Shown here piece by piece: positions 7,754 to 12,766 of a stretch of DNA of 32,000 bases. The notes beneath the pieces were generated by a model. It searched no databases, was not told the origin of the DNA, and was given only the letters and a program-made list of their open reading frames with translations. Made by a program: the position numbers and the translations under genes. Every line of letters begins with the position of its first letter. Position 1 is the first letter of the stretch. Origin of the DNA: an uncultured Planctomycetia bacterium (lineage in GTDB: Bacteria; Omnitrophota; Gorgyraeia; Duberdicusellales; 4484-171); assembly GCA_964536865.1 (NCBI GenBank), contig CAZHYN010000002.1, positions 1-32,000 of the forward strand, in the 5' to 3' direction.

Positions 7754-8139
7754 TCTCGCGTTCCTTAGAACGCATAGCCGATTTATCCACAAACATTTGT
7801 GAAGATGTAATATTCATAACAGAAGGCAAAATTATAAAACATCACAAAGATGAAAGTTAAGGTGATGGGCGGGGATAGGTTTCTTTTTGTTCCGATGGCA
7901 ATCTGGAACATAGGCTAATATAGACAGGTGCTTGAGGAGGGGTTTTGTTAACCTTACCTATTCTTTAAAATATTTCTCTTAAAAGATTTAAAATTGGTAA
8001 GCCAGTCAGCAAAAAAATAAAAATTTCTATTTTCCCTATTCTTTAATTACAAAAATTCTTTTCTGCCGAAAGGCAGACAAACCCCTATATAAGATGAGTT
8101 TTTAAGAGAAGATTCTTTTAATTAAAGCCTCCTCAAAGC

Positions 8140-8293
8140 AAGTGCTTGAGGAAGCTATCCAAAAGGGAAACAAACTTCCCGACGAAATGTCGGGATAAAC
8201 TCCGCGCAGAAGTCCGCCTGTCCCGATGAGCAATAGCGACATCGGGAAGCACCGACTTGTCCGCCTCTGGAGGAGACTGCGGGGTGGGTGGGG
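8140..8293 (+). pseudogene. Decayed paralogue of the 3' half (P7/P8 to 3' end) of the group I intron at 11728-11987
   Basis: Collinear blocks against the intact intron. AAGTGCTTGAGGAAGCTATCCAAAAGGGA matches AAGGTGCAGAGACTATCCCGAAAAGGGA. Hairpins CCCGAC-GAAAT-GTCGGG (8178-8194) and CCCGATG-N11-CATCGGG (8222-8246) match the CCCCGAT..ATCGGGG and TTCCGAC..GTCGGAA hairpins. GTCCGCCTCTGGAGGAGACTGCGGGGTGGGTGGGG matches GTCCACCCTCTGGGGAAACTCAGGGATTAGGTG. P7 complementarity is lost and no tRNA exons flank it. Confidence 0.45.
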
Positions 8294-8306
8294 AATTAAA
8301 TCCTTT

Positions 8307-8624: not shown

Positions 8625-8706
8625 TTAATACCAATTTTGTTAATAATGCATAAACTAATGCAAGAAGCTTTTATTAAGTTAAGGGGGTGTCTACAGTGAT
8701 TTTAAG

Positions 8707-8979
8707 CTAAATCTTTCCCAGAAACATCAATATCCCTATTATCACAAAGAGTATCGCACCAGCATACCGTATTAGTTCTGGTTTAAGATACTCCCCTAGA
8801 GCCGCTCCAATCAAAACTGAAAGAGCTGTTACTACCATATATGCAGAAACCGAACCTAGCCATACAGCGAAGGGCTTACCTGATTTTGCAGACATACCTA
8901 TTCCAACTAATTGAGTTTTATCGGCAAGTTCTGCCAAAAATATTGCTCCAAATGTTACTAGGAATATTTTCCAATACAT
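8707..8979 (-). CDS. UPF0016 (GDT1/TMEM165) family single-domain membrane protein, putative Mn2+/Ca2+ transporter subunit
   Basis: 90 aa with three TM helices and the family E-x-G-D-K-T-type motif (AELADKTQLV). Confidence 0.8.
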   Translation of the reverse strand: MYWKIFLVTFGAIFLAELADKTQLVGIGMSAKSGKPFAVWLGSVSAYMVVTALSVLIGAALGEYLKPELIRYAGAILFVIIGILMFLGKI

Positions 8980-9076
8980 TAAACCCTCATTGTTTTTCTT
9001 TGCTTAAAAACTCATTCCGTCGATAAATTCAAAATAGTAAGTGACTAAATTACCCGATAGATTTAGTGGTAGTCTC

Positions 9077-9745
9077 TTATCGGCCTCTACCTCTACCTCC
9101 AACGGGCACCCCTTTAGATCTCCCCACACCTTCTGGCTTGCCAACTCCTTCAGGCTTACCTATACCTTCTGGTTTGCCTATGCCTTCAGGTATACCGATT
9201 CCTTTTGGTATTCCTATTCCTTCTAGCTTGCCAGTAGGGAGTTCACCTCTTTGAATTTTTCTCAAGATACCTAAGGCAGTATTTCTTCCTGTCTTGGATA
9301 CTTCTATTGCATGTCTAATAGCAGACCGTGCTTCTTTGGGGACTTTACCCACAAGATCGCTTAAGACTTCAATATGTTTCTTAGTAGACCTCTCAACTGC
9401 TTCTAAGGCTTCACTTACATCATATCCCTGCGCTTGAGCTTTGTTAATCTGTTCCATTGCTCCATTAATATACTTTTCATAGTCTTTTAAGAGATCATTT
9501 ACAAACTCAGGCTTGCCTTTAGAAATCATCGCTTTTACTTCCTTTAATCTTTCTTTGGCGTACTTTGTGTAAAGGTTAGCCTTCTCTAATGGATCAAGTG
9601 CAGCCTTTAATTTTGCTGCCTCCATTTGCCGTTTTGCTTGATAGAGTGGATCATCAGGCAATGTCTCTGGCTCATTTTGAGCAAAGGCTATGCTTGCCAA
9701 GAATACACATATAAGTGTCAATAGCCACATTCTAACGCTTCGCAT
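9077..9745 (-). CDS. Secreted DUF5667-like helical protein with a C-terminal G-I-G-K-P-E hexapeptide repeat tail
   Basis: Signal peptide, then LPDDPLYQAKRQMEAAKLKA...AKERLKEV...HIEVLSDLVGKVPKEARSAIRHAIEVS, a DUF5667-type pattern. I prefer ATG 9745 (AGGAGG 8 nt upstream) over the track's GTG at 9754. Confidence 0.7.
   Translation of the reverse strand: MRSVRMWLLTLICVFLASIAFAQNEPETLPDDPLYQAKRQMEAAKLKAALDPLEKANLYTKYAKERLKEVKAMISKGKPEFVNDLLKDYEKYINGAMEQINKAQAQGYDVSEALEAVERSTKKHIEVLSDLVGKVPKEARSAIRHAIEVSKTGRNTALGILRKIQRGELPTGKLEGIGIPKGIGIPEGIGKPEGIGKPEGVGKPEGVGRSKGVPVGGRGRGR
9111..9236. repeat. Seven imperfect 18-bp tandem repeats
   Basis: Plus-strand units from 9129: ccttctggcttgccaact, ccttcaggcttacctata, ccttctggtttgcctatg, ccttcaggtataccgatt, ccttttggtattcctatt, ccttctagcttgccagta. 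A degenerate unit occupies 9111-9128. They encode GIGIPKGIGIPEGIGKPEGIGKPEGVGKPEGVG on the minus strand. Confidence 0.9.
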
Positions 9746-9955
9746 TTTCCACACCTCCTTTGTTAAAATTTGTTATTAAAATTGTTCTGTCTTGTATCTG
9801 GAGCTACTATAACCCTTTTTGTTTTTTTCTTCATCACCTCCTTTCTCCTTATCTTTAAGCAAAATATATACCAAAATAATGTATCTATCCTTTCTTCCAT
9901 ATATTTAAACCACTCAAATAATGAAAAGTTTCGGATACCTTATTTTTTACACATA

Positions 9956-10171
9956 TTAATCTTTTATTAGCTCATCTAAGGAAACCCCTAAGGCTTTCGC
10001 AATATTGGCAATTGTTTGGATCGAGGGATTAAGCGTGTAGCCTGATTCAATTTTTAGATATGTACTATAAGGAATATTTGCCTTTCTGGCTAACTGATCT
10101 TGGGATAATCCTAATTTCTTCCGATATTTTTTGATATTTTTTGCTATAGTTTTGCTTGACATCATATCCAT
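9956..10171 (-). CDS. XRE-family helix-turn-helix transcriptional regulator
   Basis: 71 aa. KKYRKKLGLSQDQLARKANIPYSTYLKIESG is a typical Cro/CI HTH. Divergent from the recombinase gene. Confidence 0.85.
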   Translation of the reverse strand: MDMMSSKTIAKNIKKYRKKLGLSQDQLARKANIPYSTYLKIESGYTLNPSIQTIANIAKALGVSLDELIKD

Positions 10172-10177
10172 TTTTGG

Positions 10178-10219
10178 CTATCCTTTTATGGTAAATATAT
10201 TTTAACTATCCAATTATGG
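10178..10219. promoter_or_regulatory. Two direct 14-nt repeats (CTATCCnnTTATGG) in the XRE/recombinase divergent control region; candidate operators
   Basis: ctatccttttatgg at 10178-10191 and ctatccaattatgg at 10206-10219, with 12/14 identity and 28-bp spacing, between the two divergent start codons. Confidence 0.3.
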
Positions 10220-10242
10220 ATTTTAACAAAGAGGAGGCTAAA

Positions 10243-11799
10243 ATGCAAGAAAAATTAAGATGTGCAATTTATACAAGGGTAAGTACGGATAATCAAGCAG
10301 AAGTTGAGTTTAACTCTTGTGAGGCTCAAGAAGAAAAGATAAGAGCATTTATTAAAAGTCAAGAAAATATGATAATTTATAAAGTTTACTCTGATGCTGG
10401 GTCCACAGGAGTAAATCTTAATAGACCTGCTTTACAGAAATTACTTGAGGATATAAAACAAGGCAACATTAACATTGTTTTGGTTTACAAAATTGACAGA
10501 CTTACCCGTTCTCCTAAAGATTTCTACTACTTAATGGAGATTTTTGAGAAATACAAAGTTGATTTTATCTCAATCACAGAAAGATTTGATACCTCTACTC
10601 CAGCAGGAAGACTTTTAAGAAACATAATGCTTACCTTTGCTCAGTTTGAAAGAGAGTTAGCAAGTGAGAGAACAAAAGATAAGATGCTTCAGAGAGCAGA
10701 AAAAGGGTTATGGAATGGCGGTATTTCTCCATTTGGATACAAGACATTAAATAAGAAACTTGTTCCTCATGAGCAGGAAGCTAAAGTTGTTAAGTTAATA
10801 TTTGAAACTTATGTTGATACTGGGTCTATAGCAGAGGTTTATAACACCCTGAAAGAGAAAAATATTTTAAATAGGCATGGCAAAGTTTTTACCAAATCAA
10901 GTATTAAAAATATCCTCTCTAATCCTGTCTATATCGGGAAGTTAAAATATGCTGGGAAAATTTATAATGGACTACATCAGCCTATAATTAGTGAACTTCT
11001 CTTCAACGAAGCTCAGGAACTGCACAAAAAGAAAATCAGGGAAATGAAACTCTTTAGAAATTATCTTTTTGCAGGTTTAATCACTTGTGAGGAATGCAGA
11101 TCAAAAATGACGCCAACCTATACAAACAAAAAAGCAAAAAGAGGAAGAAAGAGATATTTTTATTATAGATGCACCTCTACCCTAAAAAGAGACTGGCAGG
11201 TATGCACTACAAAACAGGTAAACGCTGATAGGCTGGAAAGATTTGTTTTAGAAAATTTAGAAAGAGTATCAAAAGATGAGCCTTATATTGAAAATCTTTG
11301 TTTTAAACTTAACCACAATCCAGATGAGTTAGTTCGAAATTCTCTTATAAAAAATAAGGTATCGGGCGACCGGGCTGGATTCGAACTAAGCAGGGAGCAA
11401 TTGAAAATTGAGCCTAAAGGTTTAATTTTCCAACTTAAAACCTTCCTTAACACTCTCTCCTCCCTCTCCCGAGCCGAGCAGGTTCTTTTAATAAAAGAAA
11501 AAATTGACTCAATAAAATATTCCAAAAAAAGAATCAGGGTAAACTTCAAATATTCCTTAAAAATCAACAACTTAAACCCCTCTCAACAAGGTTCTGGTCA
11601 GGTGGGGGTGGGTGGTGGGAGTTTAGAGAAAGAAAATCAAAATATCCCTTCCTTTTATTCTTCCGATTTAGTTCGAAAAGAAATAATGGCTCCCCGGGCA
11701 GGGCTCGAACCTGCGACCCGCTGGTTACACCTAATCCCTGAGTTTCCCCAGAGGGTGGACTATCTCTTCACCATATTCCGACGTAATGTCGGAACTTAG
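10243..11799 (+). CDS. Large serine recombinase (integrase type); the formal ORF has no stop before the tRNA and ends inside the intron on the opposite strand
   Basis: Start ATG 10243 with GAGGAGG at 10231-10237. Resolvase catalytic domain (RCAIYTRVSTDNQ, IDRLTRS), recombinase domain, zinc ribbon (CEEC...YYRC...C) and the terminal beta-hairpin block IKYSKKRIRVNFKYS ending near 11565. The last ~80 codons cover a G-rich tract, the antisense tRNA 3' exon (MAPRAGLEPATRW) and 72 nt of intron. Confidence 0.85.
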   Translation: MQEKLRCAIYTRVSTDNQAEVEFNSCEAQEEKIRAFIKSQENMIIYKVYSDAGSTGVNLNRPALQKLLEDIKQGNINIVLVYKIDRLTRSPKDFYYLMEIFEKYKVDFISITERFDTSTPAGRLLRNIMLTFAQFERELASERTKDKMLQRAEKGLWNGGISPFGYKTLNKKLVPHEQEAKVVKLIFETYVDTGSIAEVYNTLKEKNILNRHGKVFTKSSIKNILSNPVYIGKLKYAGKIYNGLHQPIISELLFNEAQELHKKKIREMKLFRNYLFAGLITCEECRSKMTPTYTNKKAKRGRKRYFYYRCTSTLKRDWQVCTTKQVNADRLERFVLENLERVSKDEPYIENLCFKLNHNPDELVRNSLIKNKVSGDRAGFELSREQLKIEPKGLIFQLKTFLNTLSSLSRAEQVLLIKEKIDSIKYSKKRIRVNFKYSLKINNLNPSQQGSGQVGVGGGSLEKENQNIPSFYSSDLVRKEIMAPRAGLEPATRWLHLIPEFPQRVDYLFTIFRRNVGT

Positions 11800-12022
11800 G
11801 TGCCGGGCGCTTCCCCCGATATAACATCGGGGTACTCCCTTTTCGGGATAGTCTCTGCACCTTCCCCGACGTTCCGTCGGGGCTTGGCTCAGGGTTACCA
11901 TCCCTGAACTACAAGAAGTTCAGAGTACAGGCTTCCCTGAATTCACCCGGTTTTTCATCCCGATGTTTCCATCGGGAGCTGCTCTTCACAGCCAGCTGCT
12001 CTACCTGCTGAGCTACCGGGGA
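11687..12022 (-). tRNA. tRNA-Asn(GUU), interrupted in the anticodon loop by a group I intron
   Basis: Exon 1 (12022-11988) is TCCCCGG TA GCTC AGCAGGTA GAGC A GCTGG CTGT. Exon 2 (11727-11687) is TAA CCAGC GGGTC GCAGG TTCGAGC CCTGC CCGGGGA G CCA. Joined, they give a perfect cloverleaf with loop CUGUUAA (anticodon GUU), U1-A72, G73 and encoded CCA, as in bacterial tRNA-Asn. Confidence 0.85.
11728..11987 (-). ncRNA. Group I self-splicing intron, subgroup IC3-like, 260 nt, no internal ORF
   Basis: P1 pairs exon GCUGU with intron GCAGC (nt 6-10), giving a U.G wobble at the 5' splice site. The terminal nucleotide is G (omega-G). P2 is an 8-bp stem with a GAAA tetraloop. Blocks GAGCCAAGC, GAAGGTGCAGAGACTA, GGCACCTAAG and TATGGTGAAGAGATAGTCCA match, from memory, the Azoarcus tRNA-Ile and cyanobacterial tRNA-Leu introns. 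P7 is GACTAT/ATAGTC and P3 is CCGGGTG/CGCCCGG. Confidence 0.85.
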
Positions 12023-12259
12023 AGTTATTTTATCTAAGAACTTTCTTCCCTGACCTGATTTAAGAAAACGTTCTCTTTGTCTAGCTTCTTTCACACAAAC
12101 AAACTCTTCATAATACACTAAATCAAATGGACCATTCTGCCTAGTCCACTGATTGGAACCTGAATTATGCTCTTTTAGACGCACTTCAACTCTTTTCGAA
12201 GTACAACCTATATACCTCTTACCATTACGTCTACTTTTTAATACATAAACTATAGCCAT
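11909..12259 (-). CDS. Short GIY-YIG (URI-domain, YhbQ/UPF0213-like) nuclease; only codons 1-79 are domain, codons 80-116 are read-through into the tRNA 5' exon and intron
   Basis: IVYVLKSRRNGKRYIGCTSKRVEVRLKEHNSG...WTRQNGPFDLVYYEEF...EARQRERFLKSGQGRKFL carries the GIY/YIG, R, H-N and E motifs. Codon 80 (TCC, 12022-12020) is tRNA nucleotides 1-3. The stop at 11909 lies inside the intron. Confidence 0.8.
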   Translation of the reverse strand: MAIVYVLKSRRNGKRYIGCTSKRVEVRLKEHNSGSNQWTRQNGPFDLVYYEEFVCVKEARQRERFLKSGQGRKFLDKITSPVAQQVEQLAVKSSSRWKHRDEKPGEFREACTLNFL

Positions 12260-12279
12260 CTTTCTATCTTATTACAGCC

Positions 12280-12309
12280 CTCGCCTGAGGCGAGTTCGCC
12301 TTCGGCGAA
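12280..12309. repeat. Two tandem 15-nt perfect hairpin modules (6-bp stem, 3-nt loop)
   Basis: Plus strand ctcgcc-tga-ggcgag (12280-12294) and ttcgcc-ttc-ggcgaa (12295-12309), inserted between tRNA positions 29 and 30 of the relic exon. Confidence 0.8.
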
Positions 12310-12351
12310 AGCTGCTCCCTGTCTACCAGCAGGTAGGTACCTGCTTAAGCT

Positions 12352-12381
12352 TCCGCCTGAGGCGGATCAGCCTCTGGCTGA
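12352..12381. repeat. Two tandem 15-nt perfect hairpin modules (6-bp stem, 3-nt loop)
   Basis: Plus strand tccgcc-tga-ggcgga (12352-12366) and tcagcc-tct-ggctga (12367-12381), inserted between tRNA positions 8 and 9 of the relic exon. Same YYNGCC-NNN-GGCNRR architecture as 12280-12309. Confidence 0.8.
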
Positions 12382-12435
12382 ACCGGGGAATAAGTTAATT
12401 TACAAAGAGCTCATCTCTTCCAATTTTGCATACTC

Positions 12436-12464
12436 ATTATACAACCATTGTTCTAATTTATCAA
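12436..12464 (-). promoter_or_regulatory. Candidate sigma-70 promoter for the relic exon / GIY-YIG / tRNA-Asn unit
   Basis: Minus strand TTGATA (12464-12459), 17-nt spacer, TATAAT (12441-12436), about 45 nt upstream of the relic exon. Such matches arise by chance in AT-rich DNA. Confidence 0.35.
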
Positions 12465-12719
12465 CTATATTGTTACTTATCAGAAAGTAGTTATCTTTAA
12501 CTTTATGAATAGCAAACGAAGCTTATTTTACCTGGACATTCCCAAAAAATAACCCTGAATTTCTCTAACGCGCTATAATCCAGTGAGTTAAGAAAATTAA
12601 AATCTGATTAGCTGCAAAGGTGAAATTTTAGGTTAAACCCGGATTTTGCATTAGCAAAATCCGCCCCAAGGGCAGCCCTTTATTCTTCATAAGAAGAAAT
12701 TCATTCGTAGAAATAAAGA

Positions 12720-12766
12720 GCTGGGTTAACCCAGCCCTTTCAAAAGAAAGGGCTTCTCCTTTTTAG
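12720..12766. terminator. Back-to-back GC hairpins with flanking T/A tracts (bidirectional terminator-like)
   Basis: gctggg-ttaa-cccagc (12720-12735) overlaps agccctttc-aaaa-gaaagggct (12733-12754). tctccttttt follows on the plus strand, and tctttatttct follows 12720 on the minus strand. Confidence 0.3.

Follow-up and report, generated by a model that had tools for sequence, protein, structure and literature searches.

Why should an incomplete copy of a transfer RNA (tRNA) gene, broken up by perfect hairpins, stand directly upstream of a small nuclease gene that itself runs into the intact version of the same tRNA gene? The question is raised by the first 32,000 nucleotides (nt) of contig CAZHYN010000002.1 (assembly GCA_964536865.1), from an uncultured Planctomycetia bacterium that GTDB places in the Omnitrophota. 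In this stretch, referred to in its entirety as the window, a relic of the 5′ part of tRNA-Asn is followed by an open reading frame (ORF) of the GIY-YIG family and then by a tRNA-Asn gene interrupted by a group I intron. The explanation that we consider probable, if by no means assured, is that the locus harbours a homing-type, tRNA-targeting GIY-YIG cassette obeying a logic like that of phage T4 SegB, and that mobile palindromic modules have settled in the redundant tRNA arm of this cassette. The order relic, ORF, intron-bearing tRNA-Asn, already given in a preliminary description made from the letters alone, is borne out by Pfam, Rfam and ARAGORN, and the components are the following.

12436..12464, minus strand: putative sigma-70-like promoter, TTGATA-17-TATAAT, matching the consensus at 11 of 12 positions and lying ~45 nt upstream of the relic
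12382..12389, minus strand: relic block 1, TCCCCGGT, equal to tRNA-Asn positions 1-8
12352..12381, minus strand: double-hairpin module 1, TCAGCC-AGA-GGCTGA plus TCCGCC-TCA-GGCGGA, inserted at tRNA position 8/9
12338..12351, minus strand: relic block 2, AGCTTAAGCAGGTA, equal to tRNA positions 9-21 but for one substituted and one added base
12318..12337, minus strand: 20-nt insert, CCTACCTGCTGGTAGACAGG, at tRNA position 21/22
12310..12317, minus strand: relic block 3, GAGCAGCT, equal to tRNA positions 22-29
12280..12309, minus strand: double-hairpin module 2, TTCGCC-GAA-GGCGAA plus CTCGCC-TCA-GGCGAG, inserted at tRNA position 29/30
12274..12279, minus strand: relic block 4, GGCTGT, equal to tRNA positions 30-35
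12260..12273, minus strand: 14-nt leader, aataagatagaaag, directly before the ATG, containing a weak purine-rich ribosome-binding region
11909..12259, minus strand: GIY-YIG ORF of 116 amino acids (aa), with its conserved domain (78 aa) at 12259..12026
11988..12022, minus strand: tRNA-Asn exon 1, positions 1-35, TCCCCGGTAGCTCAGCAGGTAGAGCAGCTGGCTGT, from the exon/relic alignment and ARAGORN on the spliced exons
11728..11987, minus strand: ORF-less group I intron of 260 nt in the anticodon loop, between positions 35 and 36 (Rfam RF00028, 83.4 bits)
11687..11727, minus strand: tRNA-Asn exon 2, positions 36-76 including CCA, from ARAGORN on the spliced exons

A relic of tRNA-Asn and a family of tRNA-fused GIY-YIG genes

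Read from 12389 to 12274, the relic is TCCCCGGT / TCAGCCAGAGGCTGA TCCGCCTCAGGCGGA / AGCTTAAGCAGGTA / CCTACCTGCTGGTAGACAGG / GAGCAGCT / TTCGCCGAAGGCGAA CTCGCCTCAGGCGAG / GGCTGT. The 35-nt exon 1 is thus repeated in order as blocks of 8, 14, 8 and 6 nt, which depart from it by one substitution and one extra base and are split at positions 8/9, 21/22 and 29/30 by inserts of 30, 20 and 30 nt, exactly as originally described. That the blocks derive from exon 1 is upheld by a block alignment permitting free long inserts, in which the relic scores 45 against 17.3 ± 3.5 (maximum 29) for 1000 shuffles and is surpassed across the 32-kilobase (kb) window by exon 1 alone; exon-derived copies are also present in relatives. 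The variant form of block 2 (AGCTTAAGCAGGTA) recurs in one of these, L014 (loci are given by L numbers). The aligner carries the match on to position 38, through an AA (positions 37-38) into the leader, and block 4 may thus continue there in decayed form. Having no 3′ half, the relic cannot form the complete cloverleaf of a functional tRNA gene, and ARAGORN and Rfam, permissive thresholds included, detect no tRNA or RNA family in 12274-12392. In the raw window ARAGORN calls no tRNA, because the intron interrupts tRNA-Asn; once exons 1 and 2 are spliced, it finds tRNA-Asn(GTT).

The ORF belongs to the GIY-YIG superfamily (Pfam PF01541, E = 2e-14, 54 bits against a cut-off of 22.6). Residues Y5, Y16, G18, T20, R27, H31, G34, E63, K67 and G71 are invariant in 17 homologues with 37-69% identity to the window protein, and from their position in the Pfam match we take the two tyrosines of the GIY and YIG motifs, together with the catalytic Arg and Glu, to be among them. 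Since the catalytic residues are invariant, the genes look functional. The conserved protein is only ~80 aa long, its C-terminal tail differing with the tRNA that is overlapped, and its sole sequence match in the PDB is 1zg2, a UPF0213 domain-only protein. Intron endonucleases give no more than a weak match (TIGR01453, 19.8 bits, the cut-off being 56), and the ORF is not intron-encoded, since it starts 237 nt upstream of exon 1 and its frame-shifted tail alone enters the intron.

When species-representative genomes were scanned with residues 1-78 of the ORF, 20 loci were found in Omnitrophota (some labelled Planctomycetia), several lineages of Patescibacteria, Acidobacteria, Ignavibacteria and Bacteroidia. 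At 19 of these the ORF abuts a tRNA or a tRNA 3′ end, the tRNA identities including Asn, Ile, Phe, Asp, Ala, Pro, Cys and Met, and more such cases came from metagenome and phage contigs, the latter searched with a profile from a 7-sequence alignment of the GIY-YIG ORF. In the closer homologues (at Asn, Ile, Phe, Asp and Ala) the intact tRNA starts 2-3 nt past residue 78, and at 8/13 loci with the layout of the window (L002, L003, L004, L006, L007, L009, L013 and L070) the stop codon is supplied by T8-A9-G10 of the tRNA, and the resulting proteins are 79-84 aa long, 81 aa in six cases. An RNase P cut at tRNA +1 would remove this stop codon from the messenger RNA and could act as a brake on expression of the nuclease. 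The window and L001 have one extra base at the junction (+1 frame relative to relatives), and because this base skips the stop codon inside the tRNA, the window ORF runs through exon 1 into the intron and reaches 116 aa. Upstream of the ORF, 9/13 window-layout loci have an incomplete duplicate of the 5′ part of that tRNA (block-alignment z at least 3.9), and more distant homologues display the mirror layout, in which tRNA and ORF are followed by a 3′ relic (z at least 7 in 4/7 loci). Nearly all relics of the family carry hairpin modules. No description of tRNA-fused mini GIY-YIG cassettes was found in the open-access literature.

Two relatives bear directly on mobility. Between L001 and the window, 334 nt reaching from GAGCAGCT in the relic across the ORF and into exon 1 are 99.1% identical, and L014 is 97% identical from the very first relic base onwards, as far as its contig extends, the leader aataagatagaaag being the same in L001 and different by one nucleotide in L014. 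The rest of both loci has no match to the 32-kb window, either as DNA or translated: dnaX and recR lie upstream in L001 and L014, the window having trmI and lipA instead, and the two DnaX proteins are, by inspection, clearly diverged. Near-identical cassettes in diverged or different neighbourhoods indicate horizontal spread, as would be expected of a Seg-like element, although the evidence is indirect in that no ORF-less allele of the same locus was recovered. Since the whole module-laden relic lies within the segment shared with L014, it appears to travel with the cassette. Both of these contigs terminate within the cassette, which is typical of repeats. Decayed ends of an older ORF are found upstream of the relic in L001, L002, L013 and L170, and the remnant in L013 is of another subfamily than the resident ORF, which argues for successive invasions. 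Upstream of the window relic no decayed older GIY-YIG gene is detectable by DNA alignment (42 against 41 ± 6 for shuffles), the last ~19 nt alone resembling the end of an ORF.

The relic might alternatively have been retained as a functional tRNA-like leader RNA that controls how the ORF is translated or how the downstream tRNA matures. Its tRNA-derived blocks are almost unchanged while the older ORF just upstream has decayed beyond recognition, its predicted fold is strong (z = -5.3 against shuffles), the promoter-like TTGATA-17-TATAAT site probably drives a joint relic-ORF-tRNA transcript, and modules lie 10-31 nt before the ATG at many loci. A conserved regulatory role nevertheless sits badly with the inconsistency of relic extent, module number and module positions from locus to locus, L001 making do with one module pair and L009 with no relic at all, and we regard it as very improbable.

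The group I intron and the end of the relic

In the window the relic ends at position 35, i.e. at the intron-insertion point, and the preliminary description had seen in it the leftover of one-sided repair at the homing site of the intron. That the relic stops at this very point is a weak claim in view of the other loci, where relics end at ~20 (L006, L070), 24 (L003), 30 (L004, L013), 35 plus 2 further nt (L005) or 45-46 (L002, L008). Furthermore, the relics of L002 and of L202, a phage contig with relic, GIY-YIG gene and intron-bearing tRNA-Asn, read through an intronless anticodon loop (GGCTtTTAA in L202), and the GGCTGT-AA of the window may itself be such a loop with one T lost. Because relic ends vary and read through intronless loops, one-sided repair at a homing site is unneeded; it is disfavoured by the same junction beside an intronless tRNA-Asn in L001 and by the same architecture at intronless tRNA-Ile, Phe, Asp, Ala and Cys. 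The related suggestion that GGCUGU serves as a decoy 5′ splice site, through which the ORF would in effect be encoded by the intron, is likewise unsupported, since the 99% identical L001 cassette, with its GGCTGT/aataagatagaaag, adjoins an intronless tRNA-Asn.

The same idea can be put in the form of collaborative homing, in which the nuclease would cut intronless tRNA-Asn at the intron site, intron and ORF would spread together, the relic would be a remnant of one-sided repair and GGCUGU might be an alternative 5′ splice site. The pathway is an established one (PMC3984707). The intron is found at the same site in 5/9 tRNA-Asn genes linked to a GIY-YIG gene (by Rfam in the window, L004, L167 and L202; by sequence similarity in L005), a frequency that, in our judgement, lies far above what would be expected for bacterial tRNAs. 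The relic does end at or within 2 nt of position 35 in two of these loci, and its GGCUGU is the exon sequence that pairs with the intron guide GCAGCU. However, cassettes occur without the intron in L001, L002, L008 and L070 and at tRNAs of intronless kinds, the architecture being present at at least five other tRNA identities; relic ends are spread over ~20 to 46, in two cases across an intronless anticodon loop; and splicing from the relic would drop the real exon 1 and yield a hairpin-laden product that is not a tRNA. Collaborative homing thus appears unlikely for the cassette as a whole, and the group I intron is best seen as a separate passenger of the same tRNA-Asn; within the tRNA-Asn lineage, the two may nevertheless be linked by collaborative homing or by the intron conferring immunity.

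The intron has hairpins of its own. Between 11777 and 11975 there are four similar ones, (C)CCGAYG...CRTCGG(G), one of them within a 37-nt stretch that is an insertion relative to the group I consensus of Rfam. Because L005 has the first of them too, this one at least represents native P2; the remaining three might have been added in the manner of modules. In the tRNA-Asn introns of two phage contigs (L202 870-1180 and L167 1830-2115) the Rfam core begins ~300 nt after the 5′ splice site, the P1-P2 region being filled by an extra ORF or added hairpins.

Palindromic modules inside and outside relics

The four 15-mers of the window relic are, as claimed, perfect hairpins with 6-base-pair stems and 3-nt loops, and GC-rich perfect hairpins number 5 in the 200-nt relic zone against 6 in the remaining ~31.8 kb of the window. 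Module 1 fits TCAGCC-N3-GGCTGA-TCCGCC-N3-GGCGGA exactly, which makes it a canonical copy of a dispersed 30-nt family. Module 2 is a variant pair that obeys the loop rule of this family (NNA in the first hairpin, TNN in the second); it is shared with L001 and L014, single relatives occur in L010 and L013, and the exact pair is absent from the viral and phage contigs scanned. The 20-mer CCTACCTGCTGGTAGACAGG is a decayed copy of a perfect palindrome, CCTGCCTGCCGGCAGGCAGG, whose perfect form occupies the same site in L014. For this reason the complementarity between 20-mer and D-loop that had been pointed out, AGCAGGTA-CC-TACCTGCT, is present but probably incidental. Comparison of relatives, as had been suggested, proved informative: sites 8/9 and 21/22 are filled in L014 and precisely empty in L001, where the tRNA sequence runs on uninterrupted and no target duplication is seen. 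Position 29/30 is also filled in the tRNA-Asn relics of L002, L005 and L008. These comparisons indicate that the modules were gained stepwise and, together with dispersed exact copies, favour the first of the three candidates originally proposed, a tiny palindromic mobile module.

A search for the motif beyond the window, likewise suggested at the outset, found the double hairpin widely in metagenome and phage contigs. With 24 fixed bases the exact motif is expected essentially zero times by chance, yet the metagenome scan returned at least 129 copies in at least 120 loci, in hosts of 32-60% GC. It is also found in about a dozen low-GC phage contigs, where it lies in narrow gaps between genes, in many cases 10-20 nt ahead of a start codon (phage contigs were scanned with a looser form of the motif, giving 26 loci in the first scan). 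Among the matches listed, here and for the counts out of 129 or 131 that follow, the loop of hairpin 1 is NNA in 123/129 and that of hairpin 2 is TNN in 126/129, which gives the 30-mer an overall dyad symmetry and the family the consensus TCAGCC-NNA-GGCTGA-TCCGCC-TNN-GGCGGA. The flanks follow YY|module|RA, with no GTAG or CGTC tag. Stem variants preserve pairing (TTAGCC/GGCTAA, CCAGCC/GGCTGG, TTCGCC/GGCGAA, CTCGCC/GGCGAG and TCTGCC/GGCAGA), and at 47/339 GCC-N3-GGC sites outside the seed copies all three outer base pairs are perfect, where 5.3 such sites would be expected. That the two loops might be complementary to each other was considered and rejected (13 observed, 19.5 expected). The 20-mer CCTGCCTGCCGGCAGGCAGG is a family in its own right, with 35 phage loci and further copies in L006, L015 and L125, and it occupies position 21/22 of another tRNA-Asn relic, that of L202. 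Overall, the modules qualify as dispersed palindromes, i.e. short, GC-rich, multicopy and extragenic hairpin repeats. No description of these modules, in Patescibacteria or elsewhere, was found in the open-access literature.

Where the modules insert is far from uniform. An intact tRNA lies within 200 nt of 21/129 double-hairpin copies, tRNA neighbourhoods making up, by our estimate, ~2% of a small genome. A recurrent site is the T-loop of 3′ relics, GGTTC^RAATCC, used at nine loci and in one orientation throughout; others are AGCT^CA in the D-arm and positions 8/9, 17/18 and 21/22, while position 29/30 of tRNA-Asn has been used in four separate lineages. The same module sits in relics of different tRNAs. 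As a rule, modules are 6-9 nt away from the broken end of a relic. Further copies are located at the tips of larger hairpins (L057, L117, L131) or in AT-rich DNA between direct repeats. Direct repeats of at least 5 nt flank 30/131 copies, against 3.7 expected after re-pairing of flanks, and are of variable length, 5-14 nt, with up to 14 nt for the 20-mer. Inverted repeats flanking the module within 2 nt are about as frequent as chance predicts (4 observed, 3.6 expected), and the cases of a module at the tip of a larger hairpin therefore rest on reading of individual sequences.

The dispersal of the modules bears on whether the hairpins could have been made at the site itself when a break was repaired, through template switching or snap-back synthesis. 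Every insert is self-complementary and lies near the broken end of its relic, and GCAGCT|GGCTGT of tRNA-Asn resembles the arm TCAGCC/GGCTGA, as an origin on the spot would have it. It would not account, however, for the same 30-mers and 20-mers in unrelated contexts, phyla and phages, for one module in relics of different tRNAs, or for the loop (NNA/TNN) and flank (YY/RA) rules that copies have in common. Dispersed identical copies largely refute this scenario, to which we accord hardly any credence.

More difficult to judge is whether nuclease and modules are a single system, in which a structure-specific GIY-YIG enzyme would cut hairpin or cruciform DNA (tRNA arms as well as modules), spread the modules and generate the partial tRNA duplications, much as in the REP/RAYT pairing. 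Modules are present in nearly all relics of the ORF family, close to the broken ends; they insert at tRNA loops and at the tips of other hairpins; direct repeats flank far more copies than expected; the closest solved relative of the protein is a domain-only one; and a homologue is found within 400 nt of 8/129 copies. Yet no homologue occurs in the 26 loci of the first phage scan, one alone in the 35 loci with the 20-mer, and most copies are far from tRNAs. To our knowledge, there is also no biochemical precedent for transposition of miniature elements driven by GIY-YIG proteins. We consider such a partnership doubtful. In its most far-reaching form, the domain-only GIY-YIG protein and the 15-20-nt modules would be a previously unrecognised mobile system distributed across several phyla, in which the nuclease would recognise DNA shape (tRNA arms and module hairpins) instead of a long sequence and tRNA genes, which hardly differ among bacteria, would serve as universal landing pads with built-in homology arms; this remains a speculative proposal that is similarly hard to credit at present.

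A number of module copies occupy unusual positions. In phage contig L195 (2239-2330) CCTGCCTGCCGGCAGGCAGG is lodged in the variable loop of a tRNA-Met, and ARAGORN still calls a 92-nt tRNA; a related copy in L172 has lost its T arm. Double hairpins within predicted ORFs of phage contigs (L037 6540-6569, L041 826-855 and L035 2407-2436) may be in-frame insertions, as with the palindromic elements of Rickettsia. In GC-rich metagenome loci (L049, L055, L072, L115 and L126) the module tips a longer, conserved imperfect palindrome, …ATTCCGGC…AGCT, module, …GCCGGAAT…, which looks like a separate composite repeat family. Tandem arrays in which each unit has a double hairpin are found in L008 (3330-4050), where a 103-nt unit made of tRNA pieces is repeated eight times after tRNA-Asn, and in L082 (2520-2800), where a 70-nt unit is repeated four times before tRNA-Arg. 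In the window, a second GC-rich hairpin cluster lies within an AT-rich spacer at 8050-8300. It contains TCTGCC-GAAA-GGCAGA at 8062 (compare TCTGCC-AAA-GGCAGA of the L004 relic), a decayed TCCGCCTCTGGAGGA (~8262) and hairpins of CCCGAYG type resembling those of the intron; no Rfam family was detected in it at permissive thresholds, nor any similarity to the tRNA or the intron, and it could be another module-colonised fragment.

Elsewhere in the window, a run of terminator-like hairpins (e.g. AGCCCTTTCAAAAGAAAGGGCT plus a T-run, and GCTGGGTTAACCCAGC) lies at 12640-12760, between trmI and the promoter-like site. On the other side, a large serine recombinase (Resolvase, Recombinase and Zn-ribbon; 10216-11799) converges on the 3′ end of tRNA-Asn, its reading frame crossing tRNA and intron on the opposite strand. 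It is adjoined by genes for an XRE regulator, a DUF5667 protein and a GDT1-like protein (8700-11800), with G-rich repeats near ~8280 and ~11600, and the 8700-11800 region looks like a small integrated element that uses the same tRNA-Asn. An integrase/att origin of the relic was rejected, related loci being without any recombinase.

A proposed tRNA-targeting cassette compared with known systems

As we picture the homing-type cassette, it consists of a short leader, an ORF for an ~80-aa catalytic domain alone and the 5′ part of a tRNA fused to the 3′ end of the ORF, with a second, partial copy of that 5′ part, the relic, on the other side of the ORF. Because T4 SegB provides a precedent for cleavage and repair, we infer that the nuclease would break tRNA genes that lack the cassette and that recombinational repair from a cassette-bearing copy, using the relic as left and the intact tRNA as right homology arm, would copy the ORF in, keep the tRNA functional and reproduce the duplication. 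The redundant arm would be free to vary and would thus become colonised, step by step, by the 30-nt double hairpin with its variants and by the 20-nt CCTGCCTGCCGGCAGGCAGG, such modules, whatever mobilises them, seemingly having tRNA-derived arms and the tips of other hairpins as preferred landing sites. Interrupted relics could persist longer, in that the inserts would break up a direct repeat whose recombination would otherwise delete the ORF. As part of the 5′ leader of a relic-ORF-tRNA transcript, the inserts may also stabilise or tune the RNA.

Several observations weigh against this model. The window protein has no second Pfam or NCBIfam domain and no recognisable DNA-binding domain, unlike SegB or I-TevI. 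The homology blocks of the window relic are 6-14 nt long and hardly fit for strand invasion of the RecA type; this copy may have lost its mobility, or another mechanism may be at work. In L001, an inserted T is found in the D-loop of both relic and tRNA, and target duplication or gene conversion therefore fits better than two-arm repair. As regards the modules, 108/129 double-hairpin copies are not near a tRNA, none of the phage copies checked is near a GIY-YIG gene, and what links modules and nuclease may be nothing beyond a shared habitat. GC-rich perfect hairpins do reach 9.6 per kb in the 200-nt relic zones of low-GC loci, against 0.39 per kb elsewhere, a contrast that, like several other enrichment figures, includes loci chosen via the motif itself and is thereby somewhat inflated. 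Partial tRNA duplications that bear modules without having room for an ORF are known from L081, L082 and L104, and the proposal that modules guard against deletion is a rationale.

If the model is nevertheless correct, its implications would extend well beyond this locus. tRNA genes are among the most conserved DNA of bacteria and thus ideal targets for a selfish element that needs homology in distant hosts; an 80-aa nuclease gene, fused to a tRNA and flanked by a second piece of it, would move between genomes with strongly diverged housekeeping genes as the smallest homing-type cassette described, and the story of SegB and tRNAs would be extended from T-even phages to the chromosomes of Omnitrophota and Patescibacteria. 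In practical terms, these features break assemblies at tRNA loci and create pseudo-tRNA fragments that annotation pipelines overlook, and a nuclease so compact, together with its targeting principle, is of interest in itself.

Among known systems, SegB of phage T4 is the nearest. In tRNA genes this GIY-YIG enzyme recognises the T-loop motif GGTTCRANTCC, and when it homes it takes flanking tRNA DNA along (PMC2330249), and its homologues are enriched beside tRNAs and drive tandem amplification of tRNA segments (PMC13096335). The likeness includes the GIY-YIG core, a gene placed among or beside tRNAs, the T-loop hot spot for modules and the arrays of tRNA pieces in L008 and L082. The differences are, however, substantial. 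SegB extends past the catalytic domain at its C terminus and, when truncated at that end, is no longer toxic (PMC13096335), whereas the window-type protein is a catalytic domain of ~80 aa and nothing else, with no separate DNA-binding domain. Its ORF is fused to a tRNA in which its stop codon lies and is flanked by a partial duplicate of that tRNA, and the cassette is found in the chromosomes of Omnitrophota, Patescibacteria and other phyla in addition to phage contigs. With collaborative homing the cassette has in common that an intron often accompanies it in the tRNA-Asn lineage, but it is also found without one. In the att sites of integrases, too, a partial tRNA copy flanks the insert, the intact tRNA is regenerated and relics stack; here, on the other hand, it is the 5′ half that is duplicated, the insert of ~250 nt has no integrase, and the serine recombinase of the window lies on the 3′ side of the tRNA and is absent from related loci.

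For the modules, comparisons have to be sought elsewhere. REP and REPIN sequences, with their RAYT transposases, and the small dispersed repeats of cyanobacteria are short intercistronic palindromes that form dyad-symmetric doublets, nest at the tips of hairpins and usually have no obvious target duplication, but the present unit is 15 nt long, has no GTAG or CGTC tag, is not bound to a genus and is strongly associated with tRNA fragments. The mitochondrial double-hairpin elements and GC clusters of Allomyces and yeasts, reportedly described by Paquin, Laforest and Lang, are likewise pairs of short GC-rich hairpins, dispersed over the intergenic DNA, the introns and the RNA genes of AT-rich genomes. 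In Allomyces, a mobile ORF is said to have replaced the end of atp6; there, too, elements would lie next to an endonuclease ORF that supplied a new gene end on insertion, the original being displaced as a fragment. Those elements are organellar and lineage-specific, whereas the present stems span several bacterial phyla and phages, and the two modules, the double hairpin of 30 nt and the palindrome of 20 nt, resemble a bacterial equivalent of the mitochondrial double-hairpin elements.

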